Assembly: GCF_030013595.1 (NCBI RefSeq)
Contig: NZ_CP122768.1
Source: Escherichia coli
GTDB lineage: Bacteria; Pseudomonadota; Gammaproteobacteria; Enterobacterales; Enterobacteriaceae
Length of the DNA stretch: 64,000 nt
Strand: one strand, 5' to 3'
Below the pieces are notes generated by a model that had not been told where the DNA came from, ran no database searches, and saw nothing but the letters and a program-made list of their open reading frames with translations. Shown in pieces: positions 4,554 through 52,219 of this stretch (positions within the stretch are counted from its first letter, which is position 1; each line of letters opens with the position of its first letter). Both the position numbers and the translations under genes were made by a program.

Positions 4554-4573
4554 GCATTACGTTATGCTCACAA

Positions 4574-4597
4574 CCCCGGCAAATGTCGGGGTTTTTT
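4574..4597 (+). terminator. Rho-independent terminator after lysS (overlaps the idi stop codon)
   Basis: Hairpin CCCCGGCAAATGTCGGGG followed by a T6 run. Confidence 0.7.
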
Positions 4598-5144
4598 AAT
4601 TGTGCTGCGCGAAAGCAGACAACAATTTTCTTGCTTCACTATTGGCTGCCTGCATCACCATCCACGGACTGAACGCCCACGGTGTGGCATCAATACCGTG
4701 TAATACATCTGCTAAATCACACCATTGATAATCCATCACTTCATCATCATTGATCTGTAACGCACTGGTCGTGCGTGCGGCAAATACCGGACACACTTCA
4801 TTTTCCACAATGCCATTCGGATCGGTGGCGCGGTAGCGAAAGTCAGGATAGATAGATTCAGGAGGCGTAATTTCCACGCCAAGCTCATAACGGCAACGGC
4901 GGATCACTGCGTCTTCGTTGCTTTCTCCCAGTTGTGGGTGCCCACAAACCGAGTTAGTCCACACGCCAGGCCATGCTTTTTTGCTCAGTGCGCGGCGGGT
5001 AACTAATAATTGCCCTTTGGCATTAAACAGCCAACTGGAGAACGCGAGATGTAAGAGAGTGTCTGCCGTGTGTGCGGCATACTTTTCCAGCGTACCCGTG
5101 GGAACTCCCTGTGCATTCAATAAAATGACGTGTTCCGTTTGCAT
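4596..5144 (-). CDS. idi: Isopentenyl-diphosphate delta-isomerase (Nudix fold)
   Basis: 182-aa [28 protein letters not shown]...; matches recalled Idi. Confidence 0.93.
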
Positions 5145-5266
5145 AATTTCTCACATGTAATTCTAATCACTCATCATTATAGATAATTGAAGAGTGAAAT
5201 GATTAACCAAGTGAGCGTTTATCGACAACCGCCCGTTTTGAGCGGATGTCGACAGGTAAAAACCAT

Positions 5267-5392
5267 TTAAAAAAGCAGCATCATATATTTGAAGCGACTT
5301 TCAATGGCCATTGCAACACAGTCAGAAATGACAGGAATAGAGAGAGTAAAAAGCAACAACAGACTGAATATAGCGCGCATTAAAAGATTCAT
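5267..5392 (-). CDS. yqfG: Small hydrophobic protein (41 aa), YqfG-like
   Basis: Hand-translated minus-strand ORF MNLLMRAIFSLLLLFTLSIPVISDCVAMAIESRFKYMMLLF; ATG sits 1 nt after the uacT stop (TAATATG). Below the ORF-track size cut-off. Confidence 0.4.
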   Translation of the reverse strand: MNLLMRAIFSLLLLFTLSIPVISDCVAMAIESRFKYMMLLF

Positions 5393-5393
5393 A

Positions 5394-9197: not shown

Positions 9198-9685
9198 TGA
9201 AATCGTTAATTATCGTTAATCCGGCTGACTGTATTGGCTGCCGTACTTGTGAAGTAGCCTGTGTGGTCGCTCACCCTTCAGAACAGGAGTTGAATGCCGA
9301 TGTCTTTTTACCCCGGCTGAAGGTACAGCGACTGGACAGCATCAGTGCGCCGGTGATGTGCCATCAGTGTGAAAACGCCCCTTGTGTTAGCGCTTGCCCC
9401 GTGGGGGCGCTGACGATGGGCGAGCAGGTGGTGCAGGCCAATTCTGCCCGTTGTATTGGCTGTCAGAGTTGCGTCAGTGCGTGCCCGTTTGGGATGATAA
9501 CCATTCAGTCGTTGCCGGGGGATACCCGGCAACAAATTGTGAAATGCGATCTCTGTGAACAGCGGGAAGAGGGGCCAGCCTGCGTTGAATCTTGCCCAAC
9601 ACAGGCGCTGCAGTTGCTTACTGAAAGAGAACTCAGGCGAGTCCGCCAGCAGCGTATTGTTGCCAGCGGTGAGAATCCTCTCTGA
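9194..9685 (+). CDS. ygfS: 4Fe-4S ferredoxin-type protein YgfS
   Basis: 163-aa ORF with four Cys clusters; ATGA start/stop overlap with ygfT implies translational coupling. Confidence 0.88.
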
Positions 9686-26615: not shown

Positions 26616-28001
26616 TTAGAGCACGGGAGGGACAAACGGTTTGCGTCGCAGGAAACGACCTCGCCCGGCTTTGCCTGTAAAGGTGCCGTCACAGAAAATC
26701 GTTTCACCACGGGATAAAGTTCTGACAATCGCGCCCTGACAGGTAAAACCCTCCCATGGCGAATAGTCAGCGTTGTCGTGGAGATGGCGATGCTGAATTT
26801 GTTGGCTCTGACGTGGGTCGATAATCACCACGTCGCCATCGGAACCGGGCGCTAATAATCCTTTTTGCGGCCACAGGCCAAACAGCCTGGCGGGCATCGC
26901 GCTGGTTAATTCAACAAAACGTTCCGGTGTTATACGTCCCGTCATTACGCCACTGGAAAACAGTAACTGCATGCGGTTTTCCACACCGGGTAAGCCATTT
27001 GGGCAGCGACTGAAATCGCCTTTAGAAATTTGCAGGCGTTGAGCCATCGAGAATGAGCAGTGATCGGTCGCTACCACGTCAATCGCACCATCGCTGATGC
27101 CACACCACAGTTTGTCCTGCTCGCGTACGTTACGCAGCGGTGGGCTAAGAATGAACTTCATGCCATCTTCTGTATCGTAACTGCGTTCGTCCAACAGGAG
27201 ATATTGTGGGCAGGTTTCAACCCAGACTGGCTGGTGATTCGCACGGGCAAGACGCAGATAATCCAGACCTAAGCCGTTAGACAGGTGCACGATATAGAGC
27301 GGGGCGTTACCGGCAATTTGTGCCAGGTTAATCATGCGGGCGATGGCTTCCGCTTCGCATTCCAGAGGGCGACTCAAGGCGTGATAGCGCGGCGCGGTTA
27401 ACCCTGCGGCAATAAACTCCGCCCGCTTGCTGGCGATAGCTGCATCATTTTCCGGGTGCACGGTGGTCAGCGCGCCGGACTCATGCAAGCGGCGTAACGC
27501 CTGCAAAACTTCGTCATCGTTGAGTTTGTATTGATAGGTTAAATAGAGTTTAAAACTGCTCAGTCCTTCTTCGACCATCATCGGAATTTCGTCGAGGATG
27601 GCGTGATTAATGTGCTGGATCACACCGTGAAAGCTGTAGTCGATGACCGCCTTATGGGCGGCATAACCACGATAAACCTCCAGTTGATGGCGTAACCGGC
27701 AGCCATTCGGGCCAAATCCCATATGGTCAATAATGGTTGTTGTACCGCCACACGCAGCTGCGCGGGTACCGGTAAAAAAATCATCACAACTGTGCGCGAT
27801 GCCGACATCAATATTGAAATGCGTATGGACATCCACGCCGCCAGGGAAAACGTAACAGCCAGTGGCATCAATTTCTTCATACGGGAGCTGTGGCGAAATA
27901 TTGTTGCCCAACTGGCGAACAATCCCGCTTTCAATCAGCAAATCCTGTTTGGCTTGTCCATCTGCGTTAACGACAGTGCCGTTTTTGATCAATACGCGCA
28001 T
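26616..28001 (-). CDS. hyuA: D-phenylhydantoinase / dihydropyrimidinase-family amidohydrolase
   Basis: Start placed at MRVLIKNGTVVNADG (ATG 28001-27999); 461 aa; VDVHTHF metal-binding motif. Confidence 0.9.
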   Translation of the reverse strand: MRVLIKNGTVVNADGQAKQDLLIESGIVRQLGNNISPQLPYEEIDATGCYVFPGGVDVHTHFNIDVGIAHSCDDFFTGTRAAACGGTTTIIDHMGFGPNGCRLRHQLEVYRGYAAHKAVIDYSFHGVIQHINHAILDEIPMMVEEGLSSFKLYLTYQYKLNDDEVLQALRRLHESGALTTVHPENDAAIASKRAEFIAAGLTAPRYHALSRPLECEAEAIARMINLAQIAGNAPLYIVHLSNGLGLDYLRLARANHQPVWVETCPQYLLLDERSYDTEDGMKFILSPPLRNVREQDKLWCGISDGAIDVVATDHCSFSMAQRLQISKGDFSRCPNGLPGVENRMQLLFSSGVMTGRITPERFVELTSAMPARLFGLWPQKGLLAPGSDGDVVIIDPRQSQQIQHRHLHDNADYSPWEGFTCQGAIVRTLSRGETIFCDGTFTGKAGRGRFLRRKPFVPPVL

Positions 28002-28053
28002 AGCAAACTCCAAAAACCCTCCGGCGAACCGGAGGGGAATAAGTGAAGAGTAA

Positions 28054-29265
28054 TTATTCGGTTGCCAGCCAGCTTAACGGGATTGCCGCGTACATCGCGG
28101 CACAGGTCACCAGGTGAGATTTCCAGGTTTTTTCGTTAGGTGCATGCGCTTCAGGTTCTTTACCTGGGCCAAAGCCGATCACCGGAATGCCGTGACGGCC
28201 CATGATAGATACGCCGTTAGTTGAGAAGGTCCACTTATCAACAACCGGCGCTTTGCCAAACAGACCTTCGTAGGCATTCACCAGTGCTTTAACGGTGAAG
28301 TGATCTTCTTCCACTTTCCAGGTCGGGAAGTAGCATTCGGTTGGGTAAACCAGGCCAGTCCAGGACGGACGGTCGTAGTTGTACATAGAAACAACCGCGT
28401 TAGCTTTCTGTACTGCAGGCAGGGCGCGGATTTCGTCCAGCGCGCCTTCCCAGGTTTCGCCCCAGGTCAGACGGCGGTCAATAGAGACGGCGCAGCTATC
28501 TGCTACAGCGCAACGGCTTGGGGATGTGAAGAAGATTTCAGAAACGGTGAGGGTGCCTTTGCCGAGGAATTCGTCATAACCCAGACGTTGGGAGAGTTCT
28601 TGTAATTCGCCAAGAATTGGACCCATTTTGAAAATGGCGTTGTCACCGCGTTCTGGCGCAGAACCGTGGCAGCTAACACCCTGAACATCAATACGAATTT
28701 CCATACGACCGCGCTGACCACGGTATACCTGGCAGTCGGTTGGTTCGGTACTGACCACAAATTCCGGGCGAATGCCGGATTGTTCAATAATGTACTGCCA
28801 GCACAGACCGTCGCAGTCTTCTTCCTGCACAGTACCGGTAACCAGCAGGGTATATTCATCTTCCAGACCGAGGTCTTTAATGATTTTACCGGCATAAACC
28901 ATAGATGCCATGCCGCCTTCCTGGTCGGAAGTACCGCGACCACCGATCAGCTCATCAGTTTCCATGCCTTCGTACGGATCGAAGTCCCAGTTTTTGATGT
29001 TGCCAATGCCGACGGTATCAATATGAGCGTCCATTGCCACCAGACGTGGGCCGTGGCCGATATAACCGAGAACGTTGCCCATCGGGTCGATTTCAACTTT
29101 ATCGAAGCCGACTTTTTCCATCTCTTCTTTAATACGATGTACTACGCGTTTTTCGTCGCAGCTTTCACTGGGAATAGCAACCATGTCGCGCAGGAAGCGA
29201 GTCATGTCCGCCTGGTAATCTTTTGCTTTTTCAAGAATCAGTTTGAATGGAATATTCTTAGCCAT
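28054..29265 (-). CDS. ygeY: M20-family peptidase / putative selenium-metabolism hydrolase YgeY
   Basis: 403-aa [38 protein letters not shown]... Confidence 0.9.
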
Positions 29266-29322
29266 TATTTTTCTCCAGATTTTTTACTCCCCGTTTTGCA
29301 GGGAGCAGTTCCAATAGGGTGA

Positions 29323-30519
29323 TTAAGGTGCTACAGCGTGTTTGCCTTCCCAGACAACTTCGCGGTAGTGCTTCACGTCTGTGTCGCCTTCAGTGCTGAT
29401 AACCAGCACTACGGCATCTTTGTTCAGCGCCAGTTTTTCCATCAGGCTTTGACGTTGCGGGTGATAATGAACCGCTGCGAGAACGCCCAAACCGACAGCG
29501 CCGGATTCACCGGAGATGATGCGCGGGTCATTGCCGTACGGATTACCCAGCACACGCATACCTAATGCGGCAACACTGTCCTGGCAGGAGATGAATTGGG
29601 TGGCGCAGTTACGTAGGATTTCCCAGCCCAGCGGGTTAGGTTCGCCGCAGGCCAGGCCCGCCATGATGGTGGCCATATCACCGCCAACGTTGACGATGTC
29701 GCCTTTGACGCCGGAGCGATAAATACAGTCAGCTTTGTCAGGTTCAACAATAATGCTGTGCAGATTTTGCGGGCTATAGACGTCGACCAGATAACCCAGC
29801 ACACCACCGGCCATTGCACCGACACCAGCTTGCAGCAGAACGTGCGTCGGGGTTACGCCCATTTCACGCATTTGCTCGACGGCTTCATCTGCCAGTGTTG
29901 CATAGCCCTGCATGATCCAGGTTGGGATTTTGGTGTAACCTTCCCAGGCGGTATCTTGCACCACTTCCCAGCCGTGCTGCTGCGCGTGTTGCATGGTCAG
30001 GCGAACGGTATCGTCATAGTTCATATCCGTGACGATGCACTCGGCACCGAGGTTCAGAATGGCGTCAACGCGTTCCTGAGCAGAACCTTTCGGCATGTAA
30101 ATCACCGCATTCTGTCCGAGTTGCTGTGCTGCCCATGCCACACCGCGCCCGTGGTTGCCGTCGGTGGTGGTCGCGAAGGTCATTTTTTCGCCGATGGCAT
30201 TTTTCAGATGCTCAAATGACAGCGTTTCGATATCAAGATGATATTTTTCACACAATAATTGAGCGATGGCGTACGCACCGCCGAGCATTTTGAAGGCGTT
30301 CAGACCGAATCGTTTTGATTCGTCTTTGACGAGAATTTTCTTCACACCAAAAAGGTTTGCGAGATCGTCCAGCGCACAAAGCGGTGTTGGGCGATAACCA
30401 GCAATTTTCTGGTGGAACTGGCGCGCCAGTTTGGCCTGGCTTTGCGAAAAGAGCGGTGATGTTTCGCCGTTGAAAAATTTGTTATCGGCGATATCAATCT
30501 TCAATGAGAAAACGGACAT
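29323..30519 (-). CDS. ygeX: 2,3-Diaminopropionate ammonia-lyase (PLP-dependent)
   Basis: 398-aa ORF with a tryptophan-synthase-beta-like PLP fold. Confidence 0.9.
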   Translation of the reverse strand: MSVFSLKIDIADNKFFNGETSPLFSQSQAKLARQFHQKIAGYRPTPLCALDDLANLFGVKKILVKDESKRFGLNAFKMLGGAYAIAQLLCEKYHLDIETLSFEHLKNAIGEKMTFATTTDGNHGRGVAWAAQQLGQNAVIYMPKGSAQERVDAILNLGAECIVTDMNYDDTVRLTMQHAQQHGWEVVQDTAWEGYTKIPTWIMQGYATLADEAVEQMREMGVTPTHVLLQAGVGAMAGGVLGYLVDVYSPQNLHSIIVEPDKADCIYRSGVKGDIVNVGGDMATIMAGLACGEPNPLGWEILRNCATQFISCQDSVAALGMRVLGNPYGNDPRIISGESGAVGLGVLAAVHYHPQRQSLMEKLALNKDAVVLVISTEGDTDVKHYREVVWEGKHAVAP

Positions 30520-30576
30520 ATCCTATCCTTTTGGCCTCTGGAAATAGAGGGCCGACCAGCTGATCGGCCCGAGGGG

Positions 30577-31767
30577 TTATTTCACGCGTTCTTGCGCTTC
30601 TTTCAGCAGTTGCTCGAGCAGTGCACCTGGTTTGGCGTATTTGCGGGACAGGATCATCGCGGCGATGATATAAGGCTTCCAGCTGGCTTCTTTGTAGGTC
30701 GCGATACGGTATTTTTCGAATACGCCTTCAGTCACTTCACCTTCTTTGCAGGATACGCCGCTGATATCAGCTGGCAGGCAGTGCATGTACAGGGCTTCGC
30801 CATCACGGGTCAGTTCCATCATCTCTTCAGTACAATGCCAGTCTTTGTGTTGCGCGTTCTGTGCCAGACACTGTTTTTCCAGTGCTTTTAAGCCTTCGTG
30901 ATCGTTCGCACGCAGCAATTCAGTACGCTCTTCCATCACTTTGTAAGGTGCCCATGACTTCGGATAAACGATGTCTGCGTCTTTGAAGGCTTCTTCCATG
31001 CTGGTGACCTGACGGAAGCTACCGCCGGAGGCTTTAGCATTGTTTTTAGCGACTTCAACGACATCCGGGATCAGGTCGTAGCCTTCCGGATGGGCCAGGG
31101 TGACATCCATACCGAAGCGAGTCATCAGACCGATGATGCCTTGTGGTACAGAGAGCGGTTTGCCATAGCTTGGGGAGTAGGCCCAGGTCATGGCGATTTT
31201 TTTACCTTTCAGGTTTTCCAGTGAACCAAAGTGTTCACGTAACCATGCCAGGTCAGCCATTGACTGAGTCGGGTGGTCAATATCGCATTGCAGGTTCACT
31301 AAAGCCGGACGTTGCGGCAGCACACCCTGCTTGTAACCGTCATCAAGTGCAGCGCCAACTTCACGCATATAGGCGTTGCCTGCGCCCAGATACATATCGT
31401 CACGAATACCGATGGCATCGGCGCAGAAGGAGATCATATTGGCGGTTTCACGCACTGTTTCGCCGTGAGCGATTTGTGATTTGCCTTCGTCGAGATCTTG
31501 CTGTGCAAGGCCGAGCAGGTTAAGCGCGGAAGCATAAGAGAAACGGGTACGGGTGGAGTTGTCGCGGAATACGGAAATACCTAATCCACTATTAAAGACT
31601 TTGGTTGAGATGTTTTCAGCACGCAGTGCTTTTAATGCTGCGGCAACGTCCAGTACTTGTTTCAGTTCATCTGGCGTCTGTTCCCACGTTAACAAAAAAT
31701 CTTTCTCGTGAAGGTGAGAGGTCAGCGAATTGATATCCTTAATCAGCTCATTAACAGTTTTCATCAT
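30577..31767 (-). CDS. ygeW: Putative carbamoyltransferase YgeW (transcarbamylase fold)
   Basis: 396-aa ORF, MMKTVNELIKDINSLTSHLHEKDFLLTWEQTPDELKQ... Confidence 0.9.
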   Translation of the reverse strand: MMKTVNELIKDINSLTSHLHEKDFLLTWEQTPDELKQVLDVAAALKALRAENISTKVFNSGLGISVFRDNSTRTRFSYASALNLLGLAQQDLDEGKSQIAHGETVRETANMISFCADAIGIRDDMYLGAGNAYMREVGAALDDGYKQGVLPQRPALVNLQCDIDHPTQSMADLAWLREHFGSLENLKGKKIAMTWAYSPSYGKPLSVPQGIIGLMTRFGMDVTLAHPEGYDLIPDVVEVAKNNAKASGGSFRQVTSMEEAFKDADIVYPKSWAPYKVMEERTELLRANDHEGLKALEKQCLAQNAQHKDWHCTEEMMELTRDGEALYMHCLPADISGVSCKEGEVTEGVFEKYRIATYKEASWKPYIIAAMILSRKYAKPGALLEQLLKEAQERVK

Positions 31768-32242
31768 AAAGTCCCGGTAGTGGAATGACAGGCAAAGAGG
31801 TTTATTTCACTGTGACTTGCCAAAGTGATTGGTGTTTTCACAGCTATACCTGGGACTAACAATAAGTGTGCCAGAATTATCCGCGCGGCTGCAAAAGACT
31901 AATTTGACGGATAATGTGTGGGGTTGATCACAAATTGATGCCAGCTTCTGGTTGTTTGTAAAATACGAAAACGTTTGGCTTTTTTTATCGCGTTATTTAT
32001 TTGCTGCTAAGTATCAGAAATAAGATAAAGGAACAGGCGCTCTCTCTTCAGTTTGATAAACTCACCGCCGTAATTCTCATATTGATATAGAAATGTGATA
32101 TCTCTTCCATAATTTCATTAGAAAGTGATAAAAATCTTATGTTTTTATCAAAGCCAATTTCGCCTGAGTTAATATCATCATGATCTGTGAACCATCAACG
32201 TCTTCAATGATCGACTTTTAAGTAAGTCTGGAAGGTAAAGCT

Positions 32243-34021
32243 ATGGAGCTTGCTACTACGCAGTCAGTATTGATGCAAATTCAACCGACAATTCAGCGTT
32301 TTGCCAGAATGCTTGCCAGCGTTTTGCAGCTTGAGGTTGAGATCGTTGATGAAAACTTGTGTCGCGTCGCCGGAACGGGCGCGTATGGGAAGTTTCTTGG
32401 TCGCCAGTTGAGCGGCAACTCACGCCTGCTCCGCCACGTCCTGGAAACGAAAACTGAAAAAGTTGTGACACAGTCTCGCTTCGATCCCCTTTGCGAAGGT
32501 TGCGATAGTAAAGAAAATTGCCGCGAAAAAGCATTTCTGGGTACGCCTGTCATTTTACAGGATCGTTGTGTTGGGGTGATAAGTTTGATTGCCGTTACCC
32601 ACGAGCAACAAGAGCATATTAGTGATAATTTACGCGAATTTTCTGATTACGTTCGCCATATATCCACCATTTTTGTTTCGAAACTTCTGGAGGATCAGGG
32701 ACCAGGAGATAACATCAGTAAAATATTCGCGACCATGATCGATAATATGGATCAGGGTGTATTAGTTGTTGATGACGATAATCGGATTCAGTTTGTTAAT
32801 CAGACTGCCTTAAAAACACTTGGTGTTGTACAAAATAATATTATTGGGAAACCTATCCGTTTCAGACCATTAACATTTGAGAGTAATTTTACCCATGGAC
32901 ATATGCAGCATATTGTTTCGTGGGACGATAAAAGTGAATTAATCATTGGTCAATTGCATAACATTCAGGGCCGACAATTATTTTTAATGGCGTTTCACCA
33001 ATCGCATACCAGTTTTTCTGTAGCAAATGCACCTGATGAACCGCATATTGAACAATTGGTTGGCGAGTGCCGTGTTATGCGGCAATTAAAACGACTCATT
33101 AGCCGTATTGCACCCAGCCCATCCAGCGTTATGGTGGTTGGTGAAAGCGGCACGGGTAAAGAAGTTGTCGCCCGTGCAATCCATAAGTTGAGCGGAAGAC
33201 GGAATAAACCCTTTATTGCTATCAACTGTGCCGCGATTCCGGAGCAGCTTCTGGAGAGCGAACTGTTCGGTTATGTTAAAGGCGCATTTACTGGCGCTTC
33301 TGCCAACGGTAAAACAGGGTTGATTCAGGCGGCGAATACGGGCACGCTGTTTCTCGATGAAATAGGTGATATGCCATTAATGTTGCAGGCTAAATTACTG
33401 CGCGCTATTGAGGCGCGTGAAATTCTGCCGATTGGTGCCAGTAGCCCAATACAAGTCGACATTCGCATCATTTCTGCAACTAACCAGAATTTGGCCCAGT
33501 TCATTGCCGAAGGTAAATTCCGCGAAGATCTCTTCTACCGACTTAATGTTATCCCGATAACTCTGCCACCGCTGCGTGAACGTCAGGAAGATATTGAACT
33601 ACTGGTGCATTACTTTTTACATCTGCATACCCGTCGTCTGGGATCGGTTTATCCGGGCATTGCTCCCGATGTCGTCGAAATATTGCGTAAGCATCGTTGG
33701 CCCGGAAACCTGCGCGAGTTAAGCAATTTGATGGAATATCTGGTTAACGTGGTTCCTTCAGGTGAAGTTATCGACAGCACGCTATTGCCGCCAAATCTGC
33801 TGAATAATGGCACAACGGAGCAAAGTGATGTAACAGAGGTCAACGAGGCGCACCTGGCACTCGATGATGCGGGCGGCACGGCGCTGGAGGAGATGGAAAA
33901 GCAAATGATCCGCGAGGCGCTTTCACGTCATAACAGCAAGAAGCAAGTTGCTGATGAACTGGGCATCGGCATTGCTACGCTCTATCGCAAGATTAAGAAA
34001 TATGAGTTGTTAAACACATAA
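32243..34021 (+). CDS. ygeV: Sigma-54-dependent transcriptional activator (bacterial enhancer-binding protein)
   Basis: 592-aa ORF with Walker A VVGESGTGKE, the GAFTGA motif and a C-terminal HTH (ADELGIGIATLYRKIKK). Confidence 0.92.
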   Translation: MELATTQSVLMQIQPTIQRFARMLASVLQLEVEIVDENLCRVAGTGAYGKFLGRQLSGNSRLLRHVLETKTEKVVTQSRFDPLCEGCDSKENCREKAFLGTPVILQDRCVGVISLIAVTHEQQEHISDNLREFSDYVRHISTIFVSKLLEDQGPGDNISKIFATMIDNMDQGVLVVDDDNRIQFVNQTALKTLGVVQNNIIGKPIRFRPLTFESNFTHGHMQHIVSWDDKSELIIGQLHNIQGRQLFLMAFHQSHTSFSVANAPDEPHIEQLVGECRVMRQLKRLISRIAPSPSSVMVVGESGTGKEVVARAIHKLSGRRNKPFIAINCAAIPEQLLESELFGYVKGAFTGASANGKTGLIQAANTGTLFLDEIGDMPLMLQAKLLRAIEAREILPIGASSPIQVDIRIISATNQNLAQFIAEGKFREDLFYRLNVIPITLPPLRERQEDIELLVHYFLHLHTRRLGSVYPGIAPDVVEILRKHRWPGNLRELSNLMEYLVNVVPSGEVIDSTLLPPNLLNNGTTEQSDVTEVNEAHLALDDAGGTALEEMEKQMIREALSRHNSKKQVADELGIGIATLYRKIKKYELLNT

Positions 34022-34030
34022 CCTCAGTGA

Positions 34031-34054
34031 ATCCGGCCTGAATTCAGGCCGGAT
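34031..34054. terminator. Perfect 24-bp palindrome, bidirectional terminator between ygeV and xdhC
   Basis: ATCCGGCCTGAATTCAGGCCGGAT followed by a T-rich run. Confidence 0.7.
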
Positions 34055-34060
34055 ATCCTT

Positions 34061-34540
34061 TTACTTCGTTTTCTCGCAATCCAGAACTGTATTTACAATC
34101 ATCTGATACCCCGTGCAGCGACAAAGATTTCCCGCCAGTCCGCGACGAATTTCCGTAATGGTTAATGGCTTCTCGCGTGGTTTCGCCAGCATTGCTGTGG
34201 TAGCCATAATCAGGCCAGGCGTACAAAACCCGCACTGCACCGCGCCGGATTTCGCATAAGCCTGCTGAATATGAGAAAGTTTTCCGCCTTTCGCTTCACC
34301 TTCCAGCGTGCGGATCTCTTTTCCTTCAGCCCAGGCGGCAAGGTATAAGCAACTGTCTATTGCTGTGCCGTCGACCAGCACCGTACAGGCACCACATTCA
34401 CCCACGCAGCACCCTTGTTTGACACTTAGCAGTCCTTGTTCGCGGAGTAATTCCGAGAGCGGCGTGCCTGGTGCGGCGTGAAGCTGAAAAGGGATCCCGT
34501 TAATGGCGCATTCGATGGTAATTGTTTCGCTGTGATTCAT
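34061..34540 (-). CDS. xdhC: Xanthine dehydrogenase 2Fe-2S subunit
   Basis: 159-aa ORF with 2Fe-2S Cys motifs ([17 protein letters not shown]). Confidence 0.92.
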
Positions 34541-35415
34541 TGCAATTTTCCCCCCGCCGCGGCGACGGCTTCGCTAATCACTTTTTTGGTCATCGTCTGG
34601 ATGAGATGCAGACGAAACTCTTTACTGGCCCGCCATGAAGAACGCGGGGCGACATCTTGCAGAACAGATTCGCTGATAGCTTCCAGCGTTTGCAGGTTTA
34701 ATGGCGCATTTTGTGCAGTCTGTTCGGCATGTTGGCAGCGAATCGGCGTTGGCGCGGCAACACCAAATGCCAGACGTAATTCGCTGAAATTGCCGTTATC
34801 CAGTCGGCAATGTGCGGCGCAGCCAATCGTTGAAATATCCATTGCGTCGCGCATGGCATATTTAAAATGCGCGCTGCCCGCGTGTTCTTTCGGCTGGGGC
34901 GGAAAATGAAAGGCGACAAGGATTTCGTCATGCTCAAGAGACACTTTGCCCGGCCCAGTGTGAAAGCCATTAATCGGGACGAAACGAACACCGCGCGGGG
35001 AGTGAATCTCCAGTTTCGCGTCATAAATTAGCGTTGGCGTGGCAGAATCTGCGCTGGTAGCACCGTTGCAAATATTTCCACCGTAGGTAGCGACGTTACG
35101 GATCTGCGGTCCGGCAATGGATGAGGCCGCAGCACATAACGCTGGGAGATGACGTTGAGTTACAGGATCTTCAATGAGCTGGGTAAATGTCGTTGCAGAG
35201 CCGATACGTAGTGAGCCATCTTCCGCCAGCGTAATTCCCCGCAGCTCCGCCAGATTATGAATATCAACAATATGGCGATAACGGTTATTGTGATGGTGGA
35301 GCTGAATCAGTACGTCAGTGCCACCGGCGAGCAGTTTGGCCTGCGGGTTGTCAGCCAGCAGGTTGATGGCATCAGCAAGGGTTGCTGCGCGATGGTAAGA
35401 AGCAAAATCAAACAT
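34537..35415 (-). CDS. xdhB: Xanthine dehydrogenase FAD-binding subunit
   Basis: 292-aa ORF; stop overlaps the xdhC start. Confidence 0.92.
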
Positions 35416-35425
35416 GATGTTATCC

Positions 35426-37684
35426 TCAAATCAATCCTGCCAGATGGAACTCTTCATATAACCGTTTTGGCGTCAGCGGCAGTGTATTGATTGCAACACC
35501 GGTAGCCATCTTCACCGCGTTACGAATAGCAGCGGCAACAGGAATTATGGGTGGCTCACCCAGTGACTTATGTCCGTATGCGGATTGCGGCTCATTGATT
35601 TCGACGAACGCGCTTTCCAGTTGTGGCAGATCCGGCATGGTCGGCATTTTGTAATCCAGCAGGTTGGGGTTACGGACCACGCCGCTTTTCGCATCAATGA
35701 TCATCTCTTCAAATAGCGCCCAGCCAATGCCCATTCCCATTCCGCCGTGTACCTGACCTTCTGCCAGTAGCGGATTAAGAATATGGCCCGAATCATGAAC
35801 GTTGAGGATGCGGTTGATGGTGATTTTGCACAGCGCAATATCGATCGTCAGATCAACAAAGGTACAGCCAAATGCCGGTGGGTTAGTGGTGGTTTTGATG
35901 GAGCTTTCAGCAGAGAGCTGCCCGCCGCGTTCAGGGTGGTAGAAAGCGTCCATCGCCAAATCTTTTAACGACATTAACGGCTCTTCCGGTCGTTCAATCA
36001 GCACGATATGGCCTTTTATCAGGGTCAGATTCATCGCTGACTGATGTAGCATGACAGCGGCGTGAGCGATGATTTTCTCTTTTAATAACAGTGCAGCACT
36101 GCGCAGCGCAGGCGCGGCAACATAGCTCTGGCGTGAGGCAAATGCGCCGGGATCGAACGGCGTAACGTCGGTATCTTGTGTTGAAATAACGCGAATGTCG
36201 CTGATCGGAACCCCCACGGTTTCTGCCACCATTTGCGAGAAGACAGTGTCGGCACCCTGACCGATTTCTGTCGCGCCGCTTTGCACGTTGATGGTTCCAT
36301 CCTGATTCATCAACAGGCGCGCGCCTGCTATTTCTACGCCGACAGGCCAGGTGTTAGAGGTGTAGCTAAAACAGGCGACGCCAACGCCGCGGCGTAAATT
36401 GCCTTGCTGGTTCTGGCACTCTGCACGGCGTTTTTCCCATTCAAAGATTTTCCGGCCTTTTTCAAGACACTCCGGCAACCCTGCGCTGTAAATACGTTTG
36501 CCTGTGAGCGGATTAGCATCTCCTTCGTGGGCGGCGTTGCGTAAACGAATTTCAACAGGATCAATACCTAACGCTGTCGCGGCGTCATCAAGCATAGACT
36601 CAACGGCAAATACGACTTGTGGCGCGCCATAACCACGCATCGCACCAGCCGAGGGGAGGTTGGTATAGCAGGTCTTTGAACTGTAAGCGTAGGCACAACG
36701 AGGATAAAGGTAAGCGACTTTATTTCCGCCCGCAGAAGCGATGGAGTGCCCGTGAGATGCATAAGCGCCGGTGTTAGACAGAACATCCAGACTATAACCT
36801 TTCAATGTTCCGTCGCGGTTCACGCCCATTTGCCCGTCAATAGTAAAAGCGTGGCGGGTACGGGTTGCGAGGAAACACTCTTCACGGCTAAGGGAAACTT
36901 TCACCGGAATGCCGCCAAGCTTGCTGGTCAGGAATGCCGCCATTGGCTCTTCCAGCACATCCTGTTTATTACCAAAACCGCCACCGACAAACGGTTTGAT
37001 AACTCGTACGCATGACCAGGGAATATCCAGCGCCTGACCAACTACGCGGCGAACAATGTGCGGGATCTGGGTGCTGGAAACGATGGTAATTCGAGAGTCA
37101 TCCTCCATCCATGCCAGCGATGTCACGCTTTCCATATGACAATGTTGAATAACGGGAGTCTGATAGTGCCCCTGCACCTGGTAATCGGCGGCATCGATTG
37201 TTTGTTGGACATTACCCGTCGACATCGAGCTTTGTTTTAGTAAATTGCCGCCGTTATGGATTGGTGCAGCGTCATCTGCCAGCGCCGCTTCTGGCGTGGT
37301 GATAACGGGTAATTCTTGCCACTCAATGCTGACCAATTGCGCCGCTTTTTCTGCCGTGAGTTCATCACGGGCCACGACGATGGCAACGGCGTCACCATGA
37401 TGACGAACATGGCGAGTTAGCAGTGCGCGATCGGCGGTATCGCGCTTGTTTTCATCAAGTGTCCAGGCGTGCCCAGCGGTAGCGAATGGGATATCAGGTA
37501 CATCTTCCCAGGTAAAAATCGCCAGTACGCCTGGTAAACTTCTGGCTTGTTCATCATTAATACTTACGGCATAACCATGTGCGATAGGGCTACGTACATA
37601 TTTCGCGTAACACATGCCCGCCATAACATAATCGTCAGTATATCGTGCCCGCCCGGTGACCTTAGCAATGGCATCTACGCGCAT
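35426..37684 (-). CDS. xdhA: Xanthine dehydrogenase molybdopterin-binding subunit
   Basis: Start placed at MRVDAIAKVTGRARYTDDY (ATG 37684-37682); 752 aa. Confidence 0.92.
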   Translation of the reverse strand: MRVDAIAKVTGRARYTDDYVMAGMCYAKYVRSPIAHGYAVSINDEQARSLPGVLAIFTWEDVPDIPFATAGHAWTLDENKRDTADRALLTRHVRHHGDAVAIVVARDELTAEKAAQLVSIEWQELPVITTPEAALADDAAPIHNGGNLLKQSSMSTGNVQQTIDAADYQVQGHYQTPVIQHCHMESVTSLAWMEDDSRITIVSSTQIPHIVRRVVGQALDIPWSCVRVIKPFVGGGFGNKQDVLEEPMAAFLTSKLGGIPVKVSLSREECFLATRTRHAFTIDGQMGVNRDGTLKGYSLDVLSNTGAYASHGHSIASAGGNKVAYLYPRCAYAYSSKTCYTNLPSAGAMRGYGAPQVVFAVESMLDDAATALGIDPVEIRLRNAAHEGDANPLTGKRIYSAGLPECLEKGRKIFEWEKRRAECQNQQGNLRRGVGVACFSYTSNTWPVGVEIAGARLLMNQDGTINVQSGATEIGQGADTVFSQMVAETVGVPISDIRVISTQDTDVTPFDPGAFASRQSYVAAPALRSAALLLKEKIIAHAAVMLHQSAMNLTLIKGHIVLIERPEEPLMSLKDLAMDAFYHPERGGQLSAESSIKTTTNPPAFGCTFVDLTIDIALCKITINRILNVHDSGHILNPLLAEGQVHGGMGMGIGWALFEEMIIDAKSGVVRNPNLLDYKMPTMPDLPQLESAFVEINEPQSAYGHKSLGEPPIIPVAAAIRNAVKMATGVAINTLPLTPKRLYEEFHLAGLI

Positions 37685-38138
37685 GCATGATTCACCTGTA
37701 GCGGTTGCTTCCCGCGCTTCCATAGAAATCCCCTCGATTTGAACATTTGGTTCTTATGGCAAAGATTTAGTCTAAGCAGGCAAGATTTACGCCAGAAACG
37801 ACGATAAGCGTTAAGGGAGGAAGGAAGTGTGATGATGTTAAAAAAACACAGATATGATACGAAACAGGACCCTGAATAGGGGCAGTGATACGTATCAATA
37901 TGAGTGGCGATAAAATCAATGTGATAAATTGGGATTATTACGCATCAGGATGGGAAATAGGGTAAATGAGTCAGGAAATTCGATACATCTACAGTGAATA
38001 TTTTGCTGATGATACTTCCCTTTGCCAAATGAAATTAACCTCTTTCTCTATTACCGCGTTTTTCCAGAAGCAAGAGATTGGGTATCAAGAGGCTGGCTGC
38101 TATGATATGGCGTCTTGTTTTTTAAGCGAGGAAAGATT

Positions 38139-38891
38139 TTGAGTGCGGGACGCCTGAATAAAAAATCTCTGGGTATCGTGATGTTGTTATCGGTTGGACT
38201 GCTTTTGGCGGGCTGCTCGGGTAGCAAATCATCCGATACAGGAACGTATTCCGGCTCCGTTTACACCGTGAAACGGGGGGATACGCTATATCGTATTTCG
38301 CGCACCACGGGAACCAGCGTAAAAGAGCTGGCGCGACTGAACGGCATTTCCCCCCCTTACACCATTGAAGTTGGTCAGAAACTAAAACTGGGTGGGGCGA
38401 AAAGTAGCAGTACACGTAAATCAACCGCCAAATCAACGACCAAAACCGCATCGGTTACACCGTCATCAGCAGTACCGAAATCTTCCTGGCCGCCAGTAGG
38501 GCAACGTTGTTGGTTATGGCCAACGACAGGGAAAGTTATCATGCCGTATTCGACAGCTGATGGCGGCAATAAAGGGATTGATATCTCAGCTCCACGGGGG
38601 ACTCCTATTTACGCCGCGGGTGCAGGAAAGGTGGTGTATGTGGGCAACCAGCTGCGTGGCTACGGTAATCTCATCATGATTAAACACAGTGAAGATTACA
38701 TTACGGCTTACGCCCATAATGACACGATGCTGGTAAATAATGGGCAAAGCGTGAAGGTTGGGCAAAAAATCGCCACTATGGGGAGCACTGATGCGGCATC
38801 TGTTCGCCTGCATTTCCAGATTCGTTACCGTGCTACGGCAATTGATCCGCTGCGTTACTTGCCGCCTCAGGGCAGCAAGCCAAAATGCTGA
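38139..38891 (+). CDS. ygeR: LysM / M23-peptidase (LytM-domain) lipoprotein YgeR
   Basis: Signal peptide with lipobox LLAGC; LysM motif (YTVKRGDTLYRISRTTG); TTG start behind AGGAAA (alternative ATG at 38115). Confidence 0.85.
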   Translation: MSAGRLNKKSLGIVMLLSVGLLLAGCSGSKSSDTGTYSGSVYTVKRGDTLYRISRTTGTSVKELARLNGISPPYTIEVGQKLKLGGAKSSSTRKSTAKSTTKTASVTPSSAVPKSSWPPVGQRCWLWPTTGKVIMPYSTADGGNKGIDISAPRGTPIYAAGAGKVVYVGNQLRGYGNLIMIKHSEDYITAYAHNDTMLVNNGQSVKVGQKIATMGSTDAASVRLHFQIRYRATAIDPLRYLPPQGSKPKC

Positions 38892-44348: not shown

Positions 44349-44639
44349 ATGAAAAAGAAAAATTCTGGCTTTACTGCCAGCGGCCCCGCTCGGCCTGAAA
44401 TCAGACACGGCGATATTTACCGCGACACCAGACGCGGGGGACGAGTGGTTATTCGTCACGTTACGCCAGGCAATATCACCTACCGCCGCGAGGCTTACGA
44501 ATATGACTGCGTAATGCCGCGCCGTCAGTTTGAGCGTGATTTTATTCTGGTGGAAAACAAACAACAGGCGGTGGCGAGACGTGCAGCCACGAATATTAAA
44601 AAAATCCGGGCAATGTTGGTTGCGGGAGGTAAGAAGTGA
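44349..44639 (+). CDS. Hypothetical protein (96 aa)
   Basis: AGGAG Shine-Dalgarno; stop overlaps the GTG start of the primase gene. Confidence 0.5.
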   Translation: MKKKNSGFTASGPARPEIRHGDIYRDTRRGGRVVIRHVTPGNITYRREAYEYDCVMPRRQFERDFILVENKQQAVARRAATNIKKIRAMLVAGGKK

Positions 44640-46384
44640 AAAACGCACCGAATTTGAAATATCAGCCGAAGGATAAATTCACTGAGGTTATCATTTTTGC
44701 CGGGACGGATGCTTACGCCCATGCCCAACACTGGATTGAAAGCGAAGGACGAAAACATGGCGATAACGTGCCACCCGTTTATCTGGGGCCAAAGCAACTG
44801 GCAGACCTGGCGAATATCCGCATTGTCGACGATGAACGCCGCTTTGCGCGTGTTTATATCGCGGGGGAGATAGAGCCAATCCAGATCAACGCTATCGCTG
44901 AAAAACTGGCGCTGGCTGGCGTACAGGAGGCGAAATTATACAAAGGCATCACCGACCGGGAGCCGGAGAACTGGCGCGATTACCTGCAACGGTTACGCGA
45001 ACAGGCTGAGCGCGGAGAAATTCTGTCAGGAAGGACCGAGAAAAAACACAAAATATCTCTTTCCAGAATGGCGGACAGCCAAAGGGCAAAACTTTTAGCT
45101 GAACGATTTCAGGATGTAGCAATGAATCAGGAGAGTGAGGTTGTCCACGTCTGGCGCGATGATTTTTGGGTTCCGGTAAGCACACTGGATCTTAGTCGTG
45201 AAATGGTGGCTATTTACGAAGAAAACGGAACAGCGTTTAGCCGGAGAGCAATAAGCAATGCAGTGGATGCTTTAAAAGTTATGGCCAGGCCAATGGGGGA
45301 GCCGTCAGGTGATTTATTGCCGTTCGCTAATGGCGTGTTTGACCTGAAAACTGGCGAATTTTCCCCGCACTCGCTGGATAACTGGATCACCACGCATAAC
45401 GGCATTGAGTACACGCCACCAGCACCAGGGGAGAACATCCGCGACAACGCGCCAAACTTTCATAAATGGCTTGATCACGCTGCAGGAAAAGACCCGCGAA
45501 AGATGATGCGTATATGCGCTGCGCTGTACATGATTATGGCTAACCGGTACGACTGGCAAATGTTTATTGAGGCCACAGGAGACGGCGGGAGCGGCAAGAG
45601 CACATTTACGCACATAGCCACCCTTCTGGCAGGGAAACAGAACACGGTAAGCGCCGAAATGACATCGCTTGATGATGCTGGCGGGCGTGCACAGGTTGTC
45701 GGAAGTCGTCTTATTGTCCTGACAGACCAGCCGAAATATACAGGCGAAGGATCGGGAATCAAGAAAATAACTGGCGGCGACCCCGTGGAAATTAACCCGA
45801 AATATGAGAAGCGTTTCACAGCAATTATCAGGGCTGTCGTGCTGGCAACAAACAACGTGCCGATGATATTCACCGAACGGGCCGGAGGCGTTGCACGTCG
45901 ACGTGTAATTTTTCAGTTCGATAATATTGTAAGGGAGGCCGAAAAGGATAAAGAATTACCGCAAAAGATAGCGGCAGAAATACCTGTCATTATTCGTCGA
46001 CTGCTTACTAACTTTTCAGATCCAGAAAAAGCACGAGAATTATTGCTTGATCAGCGTGACGGTGCCGAAGCTCTGAAAATAAAACAGGAAACTGATCCTG
46101 TCATTGGGTTATGTGCGGCGCTTGCATTTCTTGACGAACCGCATGGAATGATGATGGGAGGCGGTAAGAGAACAGTTGACCTTAACCCACGTACAAGTCT
46201 GTACAGGCTTTATCTTGCCTTTATGGAGTACATAGGCAAAGAAGAAAAATTAAGTGTTAATGATTTTGGTAAGGCCATGAAGGCGGCTGCAAGAGAATAT
46301 GGAGCTGAATATCTGACCAGAGGTTTTAAAGGACGAACACAAACTAACGTTATAAGAACGGAGAGAACCGAGGAATTTTTATAA
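44636..46384 (+). CDS. Phage/plasmid primase-helicase (P4-alpha / PICI Pri-Rep type, SF3 P-loop)
   Basis: Walker A GDGGSGKST and Walker B-like LIVLTDQP; GTG start behind GGAGG; iterons immediately downstream. Confidence 0.85.
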   Translation: MKNAPNLKYQPKDKFTEVIIFAGTDAYAHAQHWIESEGRKHGDNVPPVYLGPKQLADLANIRIVDDERRFARVYIAGEIEPIQINAIAEKLALAGVQEAKLYKGITDREPENWRDYLQRLREQAERGEILSGRTEKKHKISLSRMADSQRAKLLAERFQDVAMNQESEVVHVWRDDFWVPVSTLDLSREMVAIYEENGTAFSRRAISNAVDALKVMARPMGEPSGDLLPFANGVFDLKTGEFSPHSLDNWITTHNGIEYTPPAPGENIRDNAPNFHKWLDHAAGKDPRKMMRICAALYMIMANRYDWQMFIEATGDGGSGKSTFTHIATLLAGKQNTVSAEMTSLDDAGGRAQVVGSRLIVLTDQPKYTGEGSGIKKITGGDPVEINPKYEKRFTAIIRAVVLATNNVPMIFTERAGGVARRRVIFQFDNIVREAEKDKELPQKIAAEIPVIIRRLLTNFSDPEKARELLLDQRDGAEALKIKQETDPVIGLCAALAFLDEPHGMMMGGGKRTVDLNPRTSLYRLYLAFMEYIGKEEKLSVNDFGKAMKAAAREYGAEYLTRGFKGRTQTNVIRTERTEEFL

Positions 46385-46401
46385 GAGTAATGCCTGCAAC
46401 A

Positions 46402-46691
46402 GGTAGACGGGTAGATATTGGGTAGATGCTAGTTTTATGGATGCCTACCCGCTGAATCCCTTGCGCCACAAGGGATTCAGCGAAATAGGTAGATAGGGTA
46501 GACAATATCTCGCTTAAAAACTTTTTTACGCAGCGAAAGGAAAATACAGGTTAGAGAATGGAGAGTTAAAAGAAAGTCACTTTTACTATCTACCCTATCT
46601 ACCTAATAGATAAAAGTTGTTTTTTATCATTGTGTTAAGTGGGTAGATAACCGTTTCTTTGTTGTCTACCTGTTATCTACCTTGTCTACCC
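46402..46691. repeat. Putative replication origin: at least 11 copies of the iteron GGGTAGA(T/C) in both orientations, an 11-bp-arm hairpin and an AT-rich stretch
   Basis: Iterons at 46402, 46409, 46420, 46488, 46496, 46588, 46597, 46641, 46664, 46675 and 46684; inverted repeat CTGAATCCCTT/AAGGGATTCAG at 46452-46480. Confidence 0.7.
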
Positions 46692-46760
46692 ATAAGATGA
46701 AAGTACCGGATACGCCGTGAAGGTGCAGGCAGTGAAGCCCTGGTTATCGCATGTACCAAG

Positions 46761-47108
46761 ATGAAGGATGCGGAGGAACTGAAAGAAATGGCTTGCGATT
46801 TGCGCGAGGTTGAGCTTTTCAAGGATGAAGGCGGGGAGTTAATCACGTCGTTGGTGCTGGAGGATAAGCCCCGCCCACCCGTTGAACTGGAGCGCATCGA
46901 GTACGCTGCTAACAAGACAGAGAATCACGACGCGCTATGGGGCTGTATCCGTTCACGCACACAGCGCGGCGATAAATGCACTATCCCGTTGTTGCGCGAT
47001 GACATGAAAAAGCTGGGGTATGAGATGAAACACTTCCGGCGCTGGCTGTACAAGCTGGAAAGCGACGGCGTAATCGCTATTGACGGTGATTATGTGCGCC
47101 CACTGTAA
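46761..47108 (+). CDS. Hypothetical protein (115 aa)
   Basis: ORF only; sits between the origin and the GTGAGGA array. Confidence 0.4.
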   Translation: MKDAEELKEMACDLREVELFKDEGGELITSLVLEDKPRPPVELERIEYAANKTENHDALWGCIRSRTQRGDKCTIPLLRDDMKKLGYEMKHFRRWLYKLESDGVIAIDGDYVRPL

Positions 47109-47495
47109 AAAGTGAGGAGCAAAAGTGAGGATGGCGGGTAATTTAACAAAAAATCAACGCCACTCCTCACTTTCTCACCTGTATATAGGTCAAAAAGTGA
47201 GGAGTTAAAAACACATTGCAAAACAACAGATTACAACAATAAAGAAAACGACTGAGGAGCAGAACAAGAATAATAAAAAGTGAGGAACAAAAGTGAGGAA
47301 TGGTGAGTTAATAGAAATGAGGTAATAAAAATAACAGGTAGGTTAAAAAACACACCATGCAAGATATTAACTAAAACTTAACTATTTACCTCACTTTTGC
47401 GTATATATAAGGATTAAAAAGTGAGTACTTAAAAATACATTTAAAATCATATTGTTATTAACTTCATAAATTTTCACTGTGCAGCAGGTGAGGAA
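47107..47495. repeat. AT-rich non-coding array of at least 8 copies of AAAGTGAGGA (both orientations)
   Basis: Copies at about 47107, 47121, 47161 (inverted), 47193, 47276, 47289, 47388 (inverted), 47417 and 47487; no ORF of 60 aa or more. Confidence 0.6.
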
Positions 47496-47574
47496 TTAAA
47501 AAATCAGGAATGTTAAAAATGAAAACAGAATGTTGTGTCAGTGCCGTTGGGCAACGTAGCAACCAGTAAAAACG

Positions 47575-48117
47575 ATGGGGCAAAGCATGACTAAGCTGAC
47601 CATTAACAGAAAACCGAAAGGCATTTACGGCACGCCGCAGAAAACGACGCAGGCGGCGCAGGAGCAGGATAAAACCACATCGGCGCATAAAGTGATGCCC
47701 GGTAACCAGAAAGCGCAGCAGAAGCCCACAGGGGCGACACCGTGGCGGCATATGACCAAACGCCAGCGCAAAAACCGCAGGCGCGTTAACCGCCTCACTG
47801 AGTTGTGGCCTGAATTATTCAGCCGGGAAGCACCGAAGCCGCTTAAGGTGGGGATATTCGACGACCTGATGCAGGATCTCGCCGTCAGGGGGCTGGCATT
47901 CGGTCCAGGGGCATTGCGTGCGACGCTGGCATCTTATGCGCAGTGTCCGCGCTATTACCGCGCCTTAATGGCTGGTGGGGTACGCTACGACCTGAAAGGC
48001 CAGCCGTGCGGCGAGGTGACACCACAGGAACAACAGGACGCCGAAACGCGGCTGGTGGCGCTGAATGAGAAGCGCAAACGTCAGCGCCGGGCAGCAAAGG
48101 AGAAAACAGGCGCATGA
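47575..48117 (+). CDS. ProQ/FinO-domain RNA-binding protein
   Basis: LTELWPELFSREAPKPLKVGIFDDLMQDL...RATLASYAQCPRYYRALMAGGVRYDLKGQPCGEV parallels the recalled ProQ N-terminal domain (RFPHCF...RPLKIGIFQDL...RVDLDGNPCGE). Confidence 0.7.
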   Translation: MGQSMTKLTINRKPKGIYGTPQKTTQAAQEQDKTTSAHKVMPGNQKAQQKPTGATPWRHMTKRQRKNRRRVNRLTELWPELFSREAPKPLKVGIFDDLMQDLAVRGLAFGPGALRATLASYAQCPRYYRALMAGGVRYDLKGQPCGEVTPQEQQDAETRLVALNEKRKRQRRAAKEKTGA

Positions 48118-48401
48118 TTCACGACAGCAAAGCGGAAGCACTGGAAGCGCGTGGTCTGTACCGGAGAGCGGCGGCGCGGTGGGCTGAGGTCATCATGCTG
48201 GCGAATGATGACAAGGCACGGGAACAGGCGGCAAAACGTCGCGCGGAATGTATCCGCAAGGCAGCACGCCCACCAGCAAGGCAGGATAATTTCGGGGAAA
48301 TGCGCGAAACCATCAGCCGGGCACATGCCGGGATGGGATTACATCAGCCCAATGGTAAGGCATTCAGGAAATACCCTGGATCGAAAAATTGCAGTCAGTG
48401 A
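48114..48401 (+). CDS. PerC-family transcriptional regulator (copy 1)
   Basis: MIHDSKAEALEARGLYRRAAARWAEVIM...RRAECIRKA matches the PerC/Pch family signature as I recall it; ATGA overlap with the ProQ/FinO gene. Confidence 0.7.
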   Translation: MIHDSKAEALEARGLYRRAAARWAEVIMLANDDKAREQAAKRRAECIRKAARPPARQDNFGEMRETISRAHAGMGLHQPNGKAFRKYPGSKNCSQ

Positions 48402-51802: not shown

Positions 51803-51916
51803 GCGTGCAACTCCTTATTGTGGGACAGTACTGTCATACAATAAGCTATACGGAAAATTATCAAAAGAACAGAAACCAACCATTCAGATTTAACAGGTAT
51901 CAATGGGATTATGCTT

Positions 51917-52219
51917 ATGGTGCATGATGACAAAGCGGAAGAACTGGAAGCGAAAGGCTTATGGCGACGGGCGGCTAATCGCTGGGGTGAGTTACTGAAA
52001 CAGGCGGCAAGTGATGAAGCGCGTCAGTATGTAACGGAACGACGAACGGCATGCATCCGGAAGGCAACCATAACCCGGGAACCGGAAAGAGACCTGATTT
52101 GTGCCATAAGAACCGCCGCCACAAAAACACTAACGGATATGGGGATCGACCTGAAAAAAGAAGATCCACTGCGGGGCATTCAGCACGGACATACAAAGCA
52201 GGATAAACGCAGGAAGTAA
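51917..52219 (+). CDS. PerC-family transcriptional regulator (copy 2)
   Basis: MVHDDKAEELEAKGLWRRAANRWGELL...RRTACIRKA parallels copy 1 at 48114 (clear paralogue); alternative ATG at 51911. Confidence 0.7.
   Translation: MVHDDKAEELEAKGLWRRAANRWGELLKQAASDEARQYVTERRTACIRKATITREPERDLICAIRTAATKTLTDMGIDLKKEDPLRGIQHGHTKQDKRRK

Follow-up and report, generated by a model that had tools for sequence, protein, structure and literature searches.

A cluster of short repeats lying directly behind an initiator gene in a 64-kb stretch of Escherichia coli DNA (hereafter, the window) is very probably the origin of vegetative replication of an E. coli phage-inducible chromosomal island (PICI) and is cognate to the initiator encoded immediately upstream. 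The initial annotation had read this region as a satellite origin bound by its own initiator. The first part of that proposal is supported by an island layout like that of EcCICFT073, an initiator that is 71% identical to its CFT073 counterpart, and the presence of the same GGTAGA core at the tested CFT073 origin. The second part gains support from a sequence match between residues 486–576 of the initiator and the origin-binding domain of phage P4 alpha (PDB 1KA8, E = 7e-8). Site enrichment, a symmetric layout, conservation of the repeat cores, and linkage to the initiator gene likewise support an origin. Two features count against it: the half-origins come in the opposite order to those of the validated CFT073 origin, and one of the 12 sites is degenerate.

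The exact heptamer GGTAGAY occurs 17 times in the window, a number reached by none of 100 shuffles of the same sequence. Eleven of these copies fall within positions 46402–46690, leaving six for the other 63.7 kb. The cluster is therefore ~400 times as dense in the motif as the remaining window (Poisson probability of at least 11 copies, 1.5e-25), and no second GGTAGAY cluster was found elsewhere in the 64 kb. The repeat had initially been written as GGGTAGA(T/C), present in at least 11 copies and in both orientations. The copy number and the dual orientation (six on the plus strand, five on the minus strand; Table 1) stand, but the consensus required revision: the base 5′ of the core is G in only six of the 11 copies and A in the other five, giving the unit RGGTAGAY. 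A twelfth, degenerate site (GGGTAGGC) on the minus strand occupies the exact place predicted by the spacing pattern and completes a 12-site layout. Two further observations made at the outset were borne out. The array starts just 3′ of the initiator gene, with 18 bp separating the end of the ORF from the first site, and the region is AT-rich, with a GC content of 0.30–0.34 over 46500–46700 compared with ~0.5 in the flanks. Searches of the origin region for a DnaA box, an IHF site, GATC, and the oriC 13-mer found none of them; because the origin is free of the first three, we infer a DnaA-independent start like that of P4.

The origin is an imperfect palindrome of ~290 bp composed of two inverted half-origins of ~110 bp each (A and B; Table 1). 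Successive site centers are spaced by 8, 11, 23, 44, and 9 bp in half A, by 92 bp across the middle, and by 9, 44, 23, 11, and 9 bp in half B, a pattern that is mirror-symmetric to within 1 bp around a dyad centered at ~46545. Each half contains six sites, arranged as three direct, one inverted, and two direct. In alignments, half A is collinear with half B once the latter is reverse-complemented, and likewise with each CFT073 half and the P4 ori; in the A-to-B comparisons made for the window and for two relatives, neither the GGTAGA nor the CTACCC cores varied. The site spacings are close to one, two, and four helical turns, and the sites may lie roughly along one face of the DNA. The AT-rich spacer that separates the halves is the likely melting region. 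Within it, at 46516–46527, is the A-tract/T-tract motif AAAAACTTTTTT. Both origin types described below conserve this motif 3′ of half A, and the P4 crr repeats end with it as well. The 44-bp spacer inside each half is AT-rich in half B (46606–46640) and hairpin-bearing in half A.

Table 1. Features of the initiator–origin region and of the adjoining RepA-type remnant (window coordinates)
Feature	Coordinates	Strand	Description
Initiator gene, pri-rep	44636–46384	+	ORF of 582 aa
Half-origin A	46398–46510	+	Sites at 46402, 46410, 46421 (+); degenerate site, core 46444–46449 (-); 46488, 46497 (+)
Perfect hairpin	46450–46482		Arms 46450–46463 and 46469–46482, 14 nt, 100% complementary; 5-nt loop
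Central AT-rich spacer	46505–46587		84 bp between the halves; GC 0.30–0.34; inner sites 92 bp apart
Half-origin B	46584–46695	-	Inverted six-site unit: 46588, 46597 (-); 46642 (+); 46664, 46675, 46684 (-)
Truncated RepA-type initiator	46701–47108	+	C-terminal 135 codons; ORF from ATG at 46761, 115 aa
Orphan iteron array	47105–47500		AAAGTGAGGA and near copies, ~10, both orientations; 25–34% GC

The hairpin within the 44-bp spacer of half A is real and perfect, as first described, with arms longer than the 11 bp then assigned to it (Table 1). Its folding z-score against shuffled sequences is -8.2, both in the window and in locus L007. Elsewhere it is less well preserved: a single mismatch interrupts it in L011, L012 combines one mismatch with one compensatory change (T-A to A-T), the CI5 group has only a weak version, and most CFT073-type origins have none. 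CFT073 itself carries a different, 8-bp hairpin in the equivalent place. The hairpin thus appears to be a lineage-specific feature. A role as a core origin element was rejected because most relatives are without it, as was a role as the intrinsic terminator of pri, since no T-run follows it. A promoter and terminator scan of 46200–47700 returned no sigma-70-like promoter and no terminator at the hairpin. An Rfam scan of 46000–47700 likewise placed no RNA family at the origin; it returned only sub-threshold microRNA matches at 47106–47217, which we dismiss as chance hits to a DNA palindrome formed by an inverted iteron pair of the orphan array (a 22-nt inverted pair of sites at 47162–47205).

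We examined the domain architecture of the initiator. A Toprim-like N-terminal domain (residues 1–130) precedes a D5_N and SF3 helicase region (~150–480) and a C-terminal winged-helix domain (486–576), and the identity to CFT073 Pri-Rep extends over the full length of the protein. Pfam matches comprise D5_N, DUF5906, and Pox_D5. The TIGR01613 model (P4-family primase C-terminal region) scores 110.4 against a cut-off of 108.7, and residues 225–437 match SaPI5 PriRep (PDB 7OLA, E = 2e-14). The ORF is intact, and a Walker A motif is present. The initial designation of this protein as a primase-helicase suits its helicase and DNA-binding parts, which are clear, better than its N-terminus. The first 130 residues have no Pfam match and are Toprim-like in fold only, and the usual Glu of the Toprim "EG" motif is apparently replaced by Ala ("FAGTD"); for these reasons, primase activity is doubtful. 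The same N-terminal 130 residues (encoded at 44636–45030) are common to RepA-type and DUF927-type initiators, and the module seems to be swappable, being fused to RepA-, DUF927-, and P4-type helicase cores across islands at 92–95% DNA identity. At the other end of the protein, initiators associated with mostly GGTAGAG origins (the L021, L023, L053, L054, and L043 groups) have the C-terminal domain sequence NVA[DE]FSKAMK, and the others have NVNDFGKAMK. This pairing may reflect co-variation of protein and site, or shared ancestry.

The genomic neighborhood follows the gene order of the EcCICFT073 PICI: integrase, AlpA-type HTH protein, Icd-like protein, DUF4222 protein, pri-rep, origin, and PerC. 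In the RefSeq annotation of E. coli cq9, which has an identical stretch, the order reads integrase, HTH regulator, AntA/AntB, YlcI, Icd-like, DUF4222, "DNA primase family protein," a truncated "helicase RepA" pseudogene, ProQ/FinO, PerC, and DUF2213. The HTH protein of the window is an AlpA-family variant (36% identical to CFT073 AlpA), and the island is organized as a one-directional operon, as in EcCICFT073-type PICIs. The first intact gene after the origins encodes a ProQ/FinO-family RNA chaperone (47575–48117); CFT073 has a hypothetical gene and an SSB gene at this position. Two PerC-like ORFs (51911–52219 and 48114–48401) lie ~3.5 kb apart in the window, and the second, which is unannotated in the closest genome, may be left over from another island.

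Experimental precedent comes from EcCICFT073, which we located at 27931–38700 of the CFT073 genome record (L004). The 288-bp intergenic region 3′ of its pri gene carries the same GGTAGA sites. Gram-negative PICI origins have been reported to lie 3′ of pri-rep and to consist of two iteron sets around an AT-rich region (Fillol-Salom et al. 2018, PMC6092414), a layout that, according to the same study, no other known replicon shares. In that work, a plasmid carrying CFT073 pri-ori was maintained, and the delta-ori and delta-pri versions were not. We derived the limits of the cloned region from the published primers: the delta-ori construct ends at L004 position 34000, and the pri-ori construct ends near 34307. 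The second primer contains a 1-nt indel and had no match at three or fewer mismatches, so its position was read from the sequence. Because the clones end at these positions, the "ori" defined experimentally is exactly the iteron region. The CFT073 primase supplied in trans also replicates a plasmid bearing only its origin, yielding a conditional replicon (bioRxiv 10.1101/2022.09.30.509847).

Absence of the iterons from related elements with the same primase had been named at the outset as the finding that would speak against an origin. A scan of IMG/VR with the initiator retrieved 80 loci at 70–100% protein identity, to which CI5 and CFT073 were added for a total of 82. GGTAGA clusters were present within 400 bp of the stop codon in all 82 of these E. 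coli-type relatives, and the origin reading stands. The clusters comprise 6–12 copies in 81 loci and three in the truncated L034, where 149 bp of downstream sequence is present. GGTAGAY is almost absent from the ~6-kb flanks of the relatives' arrays, and the seventh base of the site differs between elements. Conservation is concentrated in the cores, at 99.2% compared with 80.3% for non-core positions among six distinct window-type origins and 95.2% compared with 74.1% among 46 distinct CFT073-type origins. The array keeps company with the initiator gene while the genes downstream vary (ProQ here, the hypothetical and SSB genes in CFT073).

Comparison of these loci revealed two origin architectures. 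The CFT073-type order (B then A, --+---++-++) is found in 73 loci, and the window-type order (A, spacer, B, +++-++--+---) is shared by the window with eight further loci. The B halves of the two types are 70% identical, as measured between the window and CFT073, compared with 57% for halves A and B within the window. This greater likeness across types points to the two architectures having arisen by a swap of existing halves. The C-terminal domain of the initiator follows the same division, with 87–100% identity within the window type and 56–60% to the CFT073 type. The sequence 3′ of half A is common to both types and, in the CFT073 type, continues into the 5′ end of the following gene. Window-type origins are infrequent: among 5,426 complete E. 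coli genomes, nine have a match covering at least 80% of the query. A search of the complete E. coli genomes with the whole island returned mosaics only, with no match reaching 80% coverage. Beyond E. coli, the initiator scan of 100,044 reference genomes retrieved one locus only, from Morganella morganii (L006). It encodes a 794-aa protein 51% identical to the window initiator; the gene is followed directly by an AT-rich stretch (3910–4200) in which TGTTCAT/ATGAACA occurs 11 times. The segment guessed to be the Morganella equivalent aligned poorly with the half-origins. In sequence, the TGTTCAT site comes near to the type I iteron of P4.

A second replication module adjoins the first. The junction with the truncated RepA-type initiator gene lies within ~5–10 bp of the last site of half B; the gene abuts the primase origin but is not part of it. 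The fragment is 95% identical to residues 336–470 of an intact, 470-aa RepA from E. coli APEC20/16 (L005), and its predicted fold is a winged-helix domain resembling ORC/Cdc6. For the 115-aa ORF, however, no ribosome-binding site is evident. When the PDB was searched with the full-length RepA sequence, a weak match to RSF1010 RepA was the sole result, with nothing for the C-terminus. Behind the fragment lies an orphan iteron array, also found 3′ of the intact RepA gene in L005, in which AGTGAGGA occurs six times, with two copies elsewhere in the window (1.1 expected). This array would be the origin belonging to the RepA-type initiator.

Other islands display related arrangements. L011, whose initiator is 95% identical to that of the window, has three iteron arrays in a row (4250–5800): GGTAGAY repeats, a RepA fragment with AAAGTGGGGA repeats, and TGGTAGAC/GGTGGAC repeats just before ProQ. 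In CI5, the RepA fragment is reduced to its first ~20 nt. In L005, a scrap of a primase-type initiator (4990–5100, encoding ~...VVATNNTPMIFTEHAGSVARRRVIFQFN) lies downstream of the RepA origin, the reciprocal of the RepA debris in the window. To judge from these junctions, PICI replication modules have evidently been swapped by recombination at origin edges.

Phage P4 offers a unit-by-unit comparison and, with it, another way to read the array. In the P4 record (L087), ori spans 9310–9413 and crr spans 4291–4590. The type-1 repeats of ori lie at 9310, 9320, 9331, 9353 (inverted), 9396, and 9406, and their spacing of 10, 11, 22, 43, and 10 bp reproduces the 3-1-2 unit of each PICI half. The plus-strand sites read GGTGAACA in P4 compared with GGTAGAYA in the window, and the AT-rich, 35-bp inner spacer of P4 ori resembles that of half B. 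CTGAA and the A-tract/T-tract motif are found both in half A and in the repeats of the P4 crr, which lies directly 3′ of alpha; the alignment of half A with crr is only suggestive. Each PICI half therefore looks like a homolog of a P4 replication unit. The crr resemblance could also mean that the array is a cis-acting replication helper or a copy-number/incompatibility element (as for P4 crr or the "handcuffing" of plasmid iterons), with synthesis starting elsewhere in the island. We regard this as quite improbable. It is true that the cluster directly after alpha in P4 is crr rather than ori, and that half A and the crr repeats have the above motifs in common; however, half B matches the P4 ori unit down to the AT-rich inner spacer, the window offers no other GGTAGAY cluster, and CFT073 pri together with this single region was enough for plasmid maintenance (PMC6092414).

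It is very improbable that the array is an inactive relic, disabled by its rearranged half order, its one degenerate site, and the insertion of the hairpin, in an island that no longer replicates itself. Eleven of the 12 cores are exact and conserved across six window-type sequences that differ by ~20% elsewhere, the mirror symmetry of the spacing holds to within 1 bp, and the initiator retains an intact ORF with its Walker A motif. These features weigh against decay even though the locus is a recombination hotspot with debris, as seen in the truncated RepA gene and orphan array directly downstream, and even though the window-type origin is rare among complete E. coli genomes. Hardly credible is the notion that the repeats are transcription factor operators for the downstream ProQ/FinO and PerC genes, as might be imagined from their placement between genes of one operon and from a CFT073-type half A that ends ~45 bp before the next start codon, given that no sigma-70-like promoter was found in 46200–47700, that the array travels with the initiator and not with the downstream genes, that ~880 bp of unrelated DNA separates it from ProQ in the window, and that replication depends on the homologous region in CFT073 (PMC6092414).

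With the array taken as the PICI origin, a course of initiation can be proposed. Induction of the island by a helper phage would lead to expression of the 582-aa initiator from the one-directional operon, by analogy with EcCICFT073. The C-terminal winged-helix domain, as a homolog of the origin-binding domain of P4 alpha, would bind the RGGTAGAY sites. The six sites of each half could then seed one SF3 helicase ring, and the inverted halves could load two rings in opposite directions. The AT-rich spacers at 46505–46587 and 46606–46640 would melt, and priming would fall either to the Toprim-like N-terminal domain or to the host primase, in a start that is presumably DnaA-independent and P4-like. 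A comparable model has been proposed for P4 alpha. The scheme as drawn here also follows proposals for SaPI Rep (PMC9371898).

A more speculative idea, which we consider unlikely, is that the gap separating the initiator gene from the operon that follows is a docking site where PICIs stack origins acquired from rival replication modules. Were this so, extra origins might let the initiator of a co-resident satellite replicate the island, with or without a retained DNA-binding fragment; alternatively, they might soak up a rival initiator as a form of competition between satellites. A separate and equally speculative idea is that the PICI origin itself is a fusion of P4 ori-like and crr-like units, in which the six sites of each unit might template one helicase ring.

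Descriptions and tests of E. coli PICI origins date back to 2018, and gene delivery already makes use of the CFT073 origin as a conditional replicon. The window origin is a further member of this described and tested type, and it carries little weight for basic biology. Its additions are modest: a site map, swapped halves, a unit-level match to P4 ori, and a stacked orphan origin. The map of 12 sites, in two inverted six-site halves with the P4 ori layout, supplies a template for binding and helicase-loading work. The order of the halves appears to be swappable between lineages, and the adjacent orphan origin indicates that satellite replication modules are exchanged by recombination at the origin edge.

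Placed among known replicons, the array is not a classical iteron plasmid origin. Plasmids such as pSC101, R6K, RK2, and P1 do have repeated initiator sites adjoining AT-rich DNA, but theirs are direct repeats of 17–22 bp accompanied by DnaA boxes and bound by a Rep protein with two winged-helix domains and no helicase. The window origin instead has sites of 7–8 bp in both orientations, an SF3 helicase as its initiator, and no DnaA box. The Rep/ori system of S. aureus SaPIs (Ubeda et al. 2007; PMC9371898) is more alike in design: an SF3 helicase that loads itself and carries a winged-helix domain at its C-terminus acts on 6–12 short sites located directly after rep and set in opposite orientations on either side of an AT-rich center. 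Its host is Gram-positive, its site sequences are unrelated, and similarity is confined to the helicase core; SaPI Rep/ori is an analogous relative from another family.

P4 and the window element share a P4-family helicase core, a homologous C-terminal origin-binding domain (1KA8), and the absence of a DnaA box; in both, a cluster of sites comes immediately 3′ of the initiator gene, and the terminal sites are followed by an A-tract/T-tract motif. They differ in that P4 alpha is a 777-aa protein with a proven primase domain, and in that P4 ori and crr lie 4.5 kb apart, whereas the PICI units are adjacent, inverted, and contained within 300 bp. The P4 type I iteron (TGTTCACC) and the RGGTAGAY unit of the window are related in form only (GGTGAACA compared with GGTAGACA), and the island annotation includes none of the P4 genes sid, psu, delta, cI, and epsilon. 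Relative to EcCICFT073, the differences lie in arrangement and in lineage-specific detail. The CFT073 origin runs B then A with the three-site ends abutting, whereas that of the window runs A, an 84-bp spacer, and B with the two-site ends facing inward; the C-terminal DNA-binding domains are only ~59% identical, the strong half-A hairpin belongs to the window, and the downstream genes differ. Common to both are the gene order, the position of the origin directly after the initiator gene, the GGTAGA core, two six-site halves, and AT-rich DNA.
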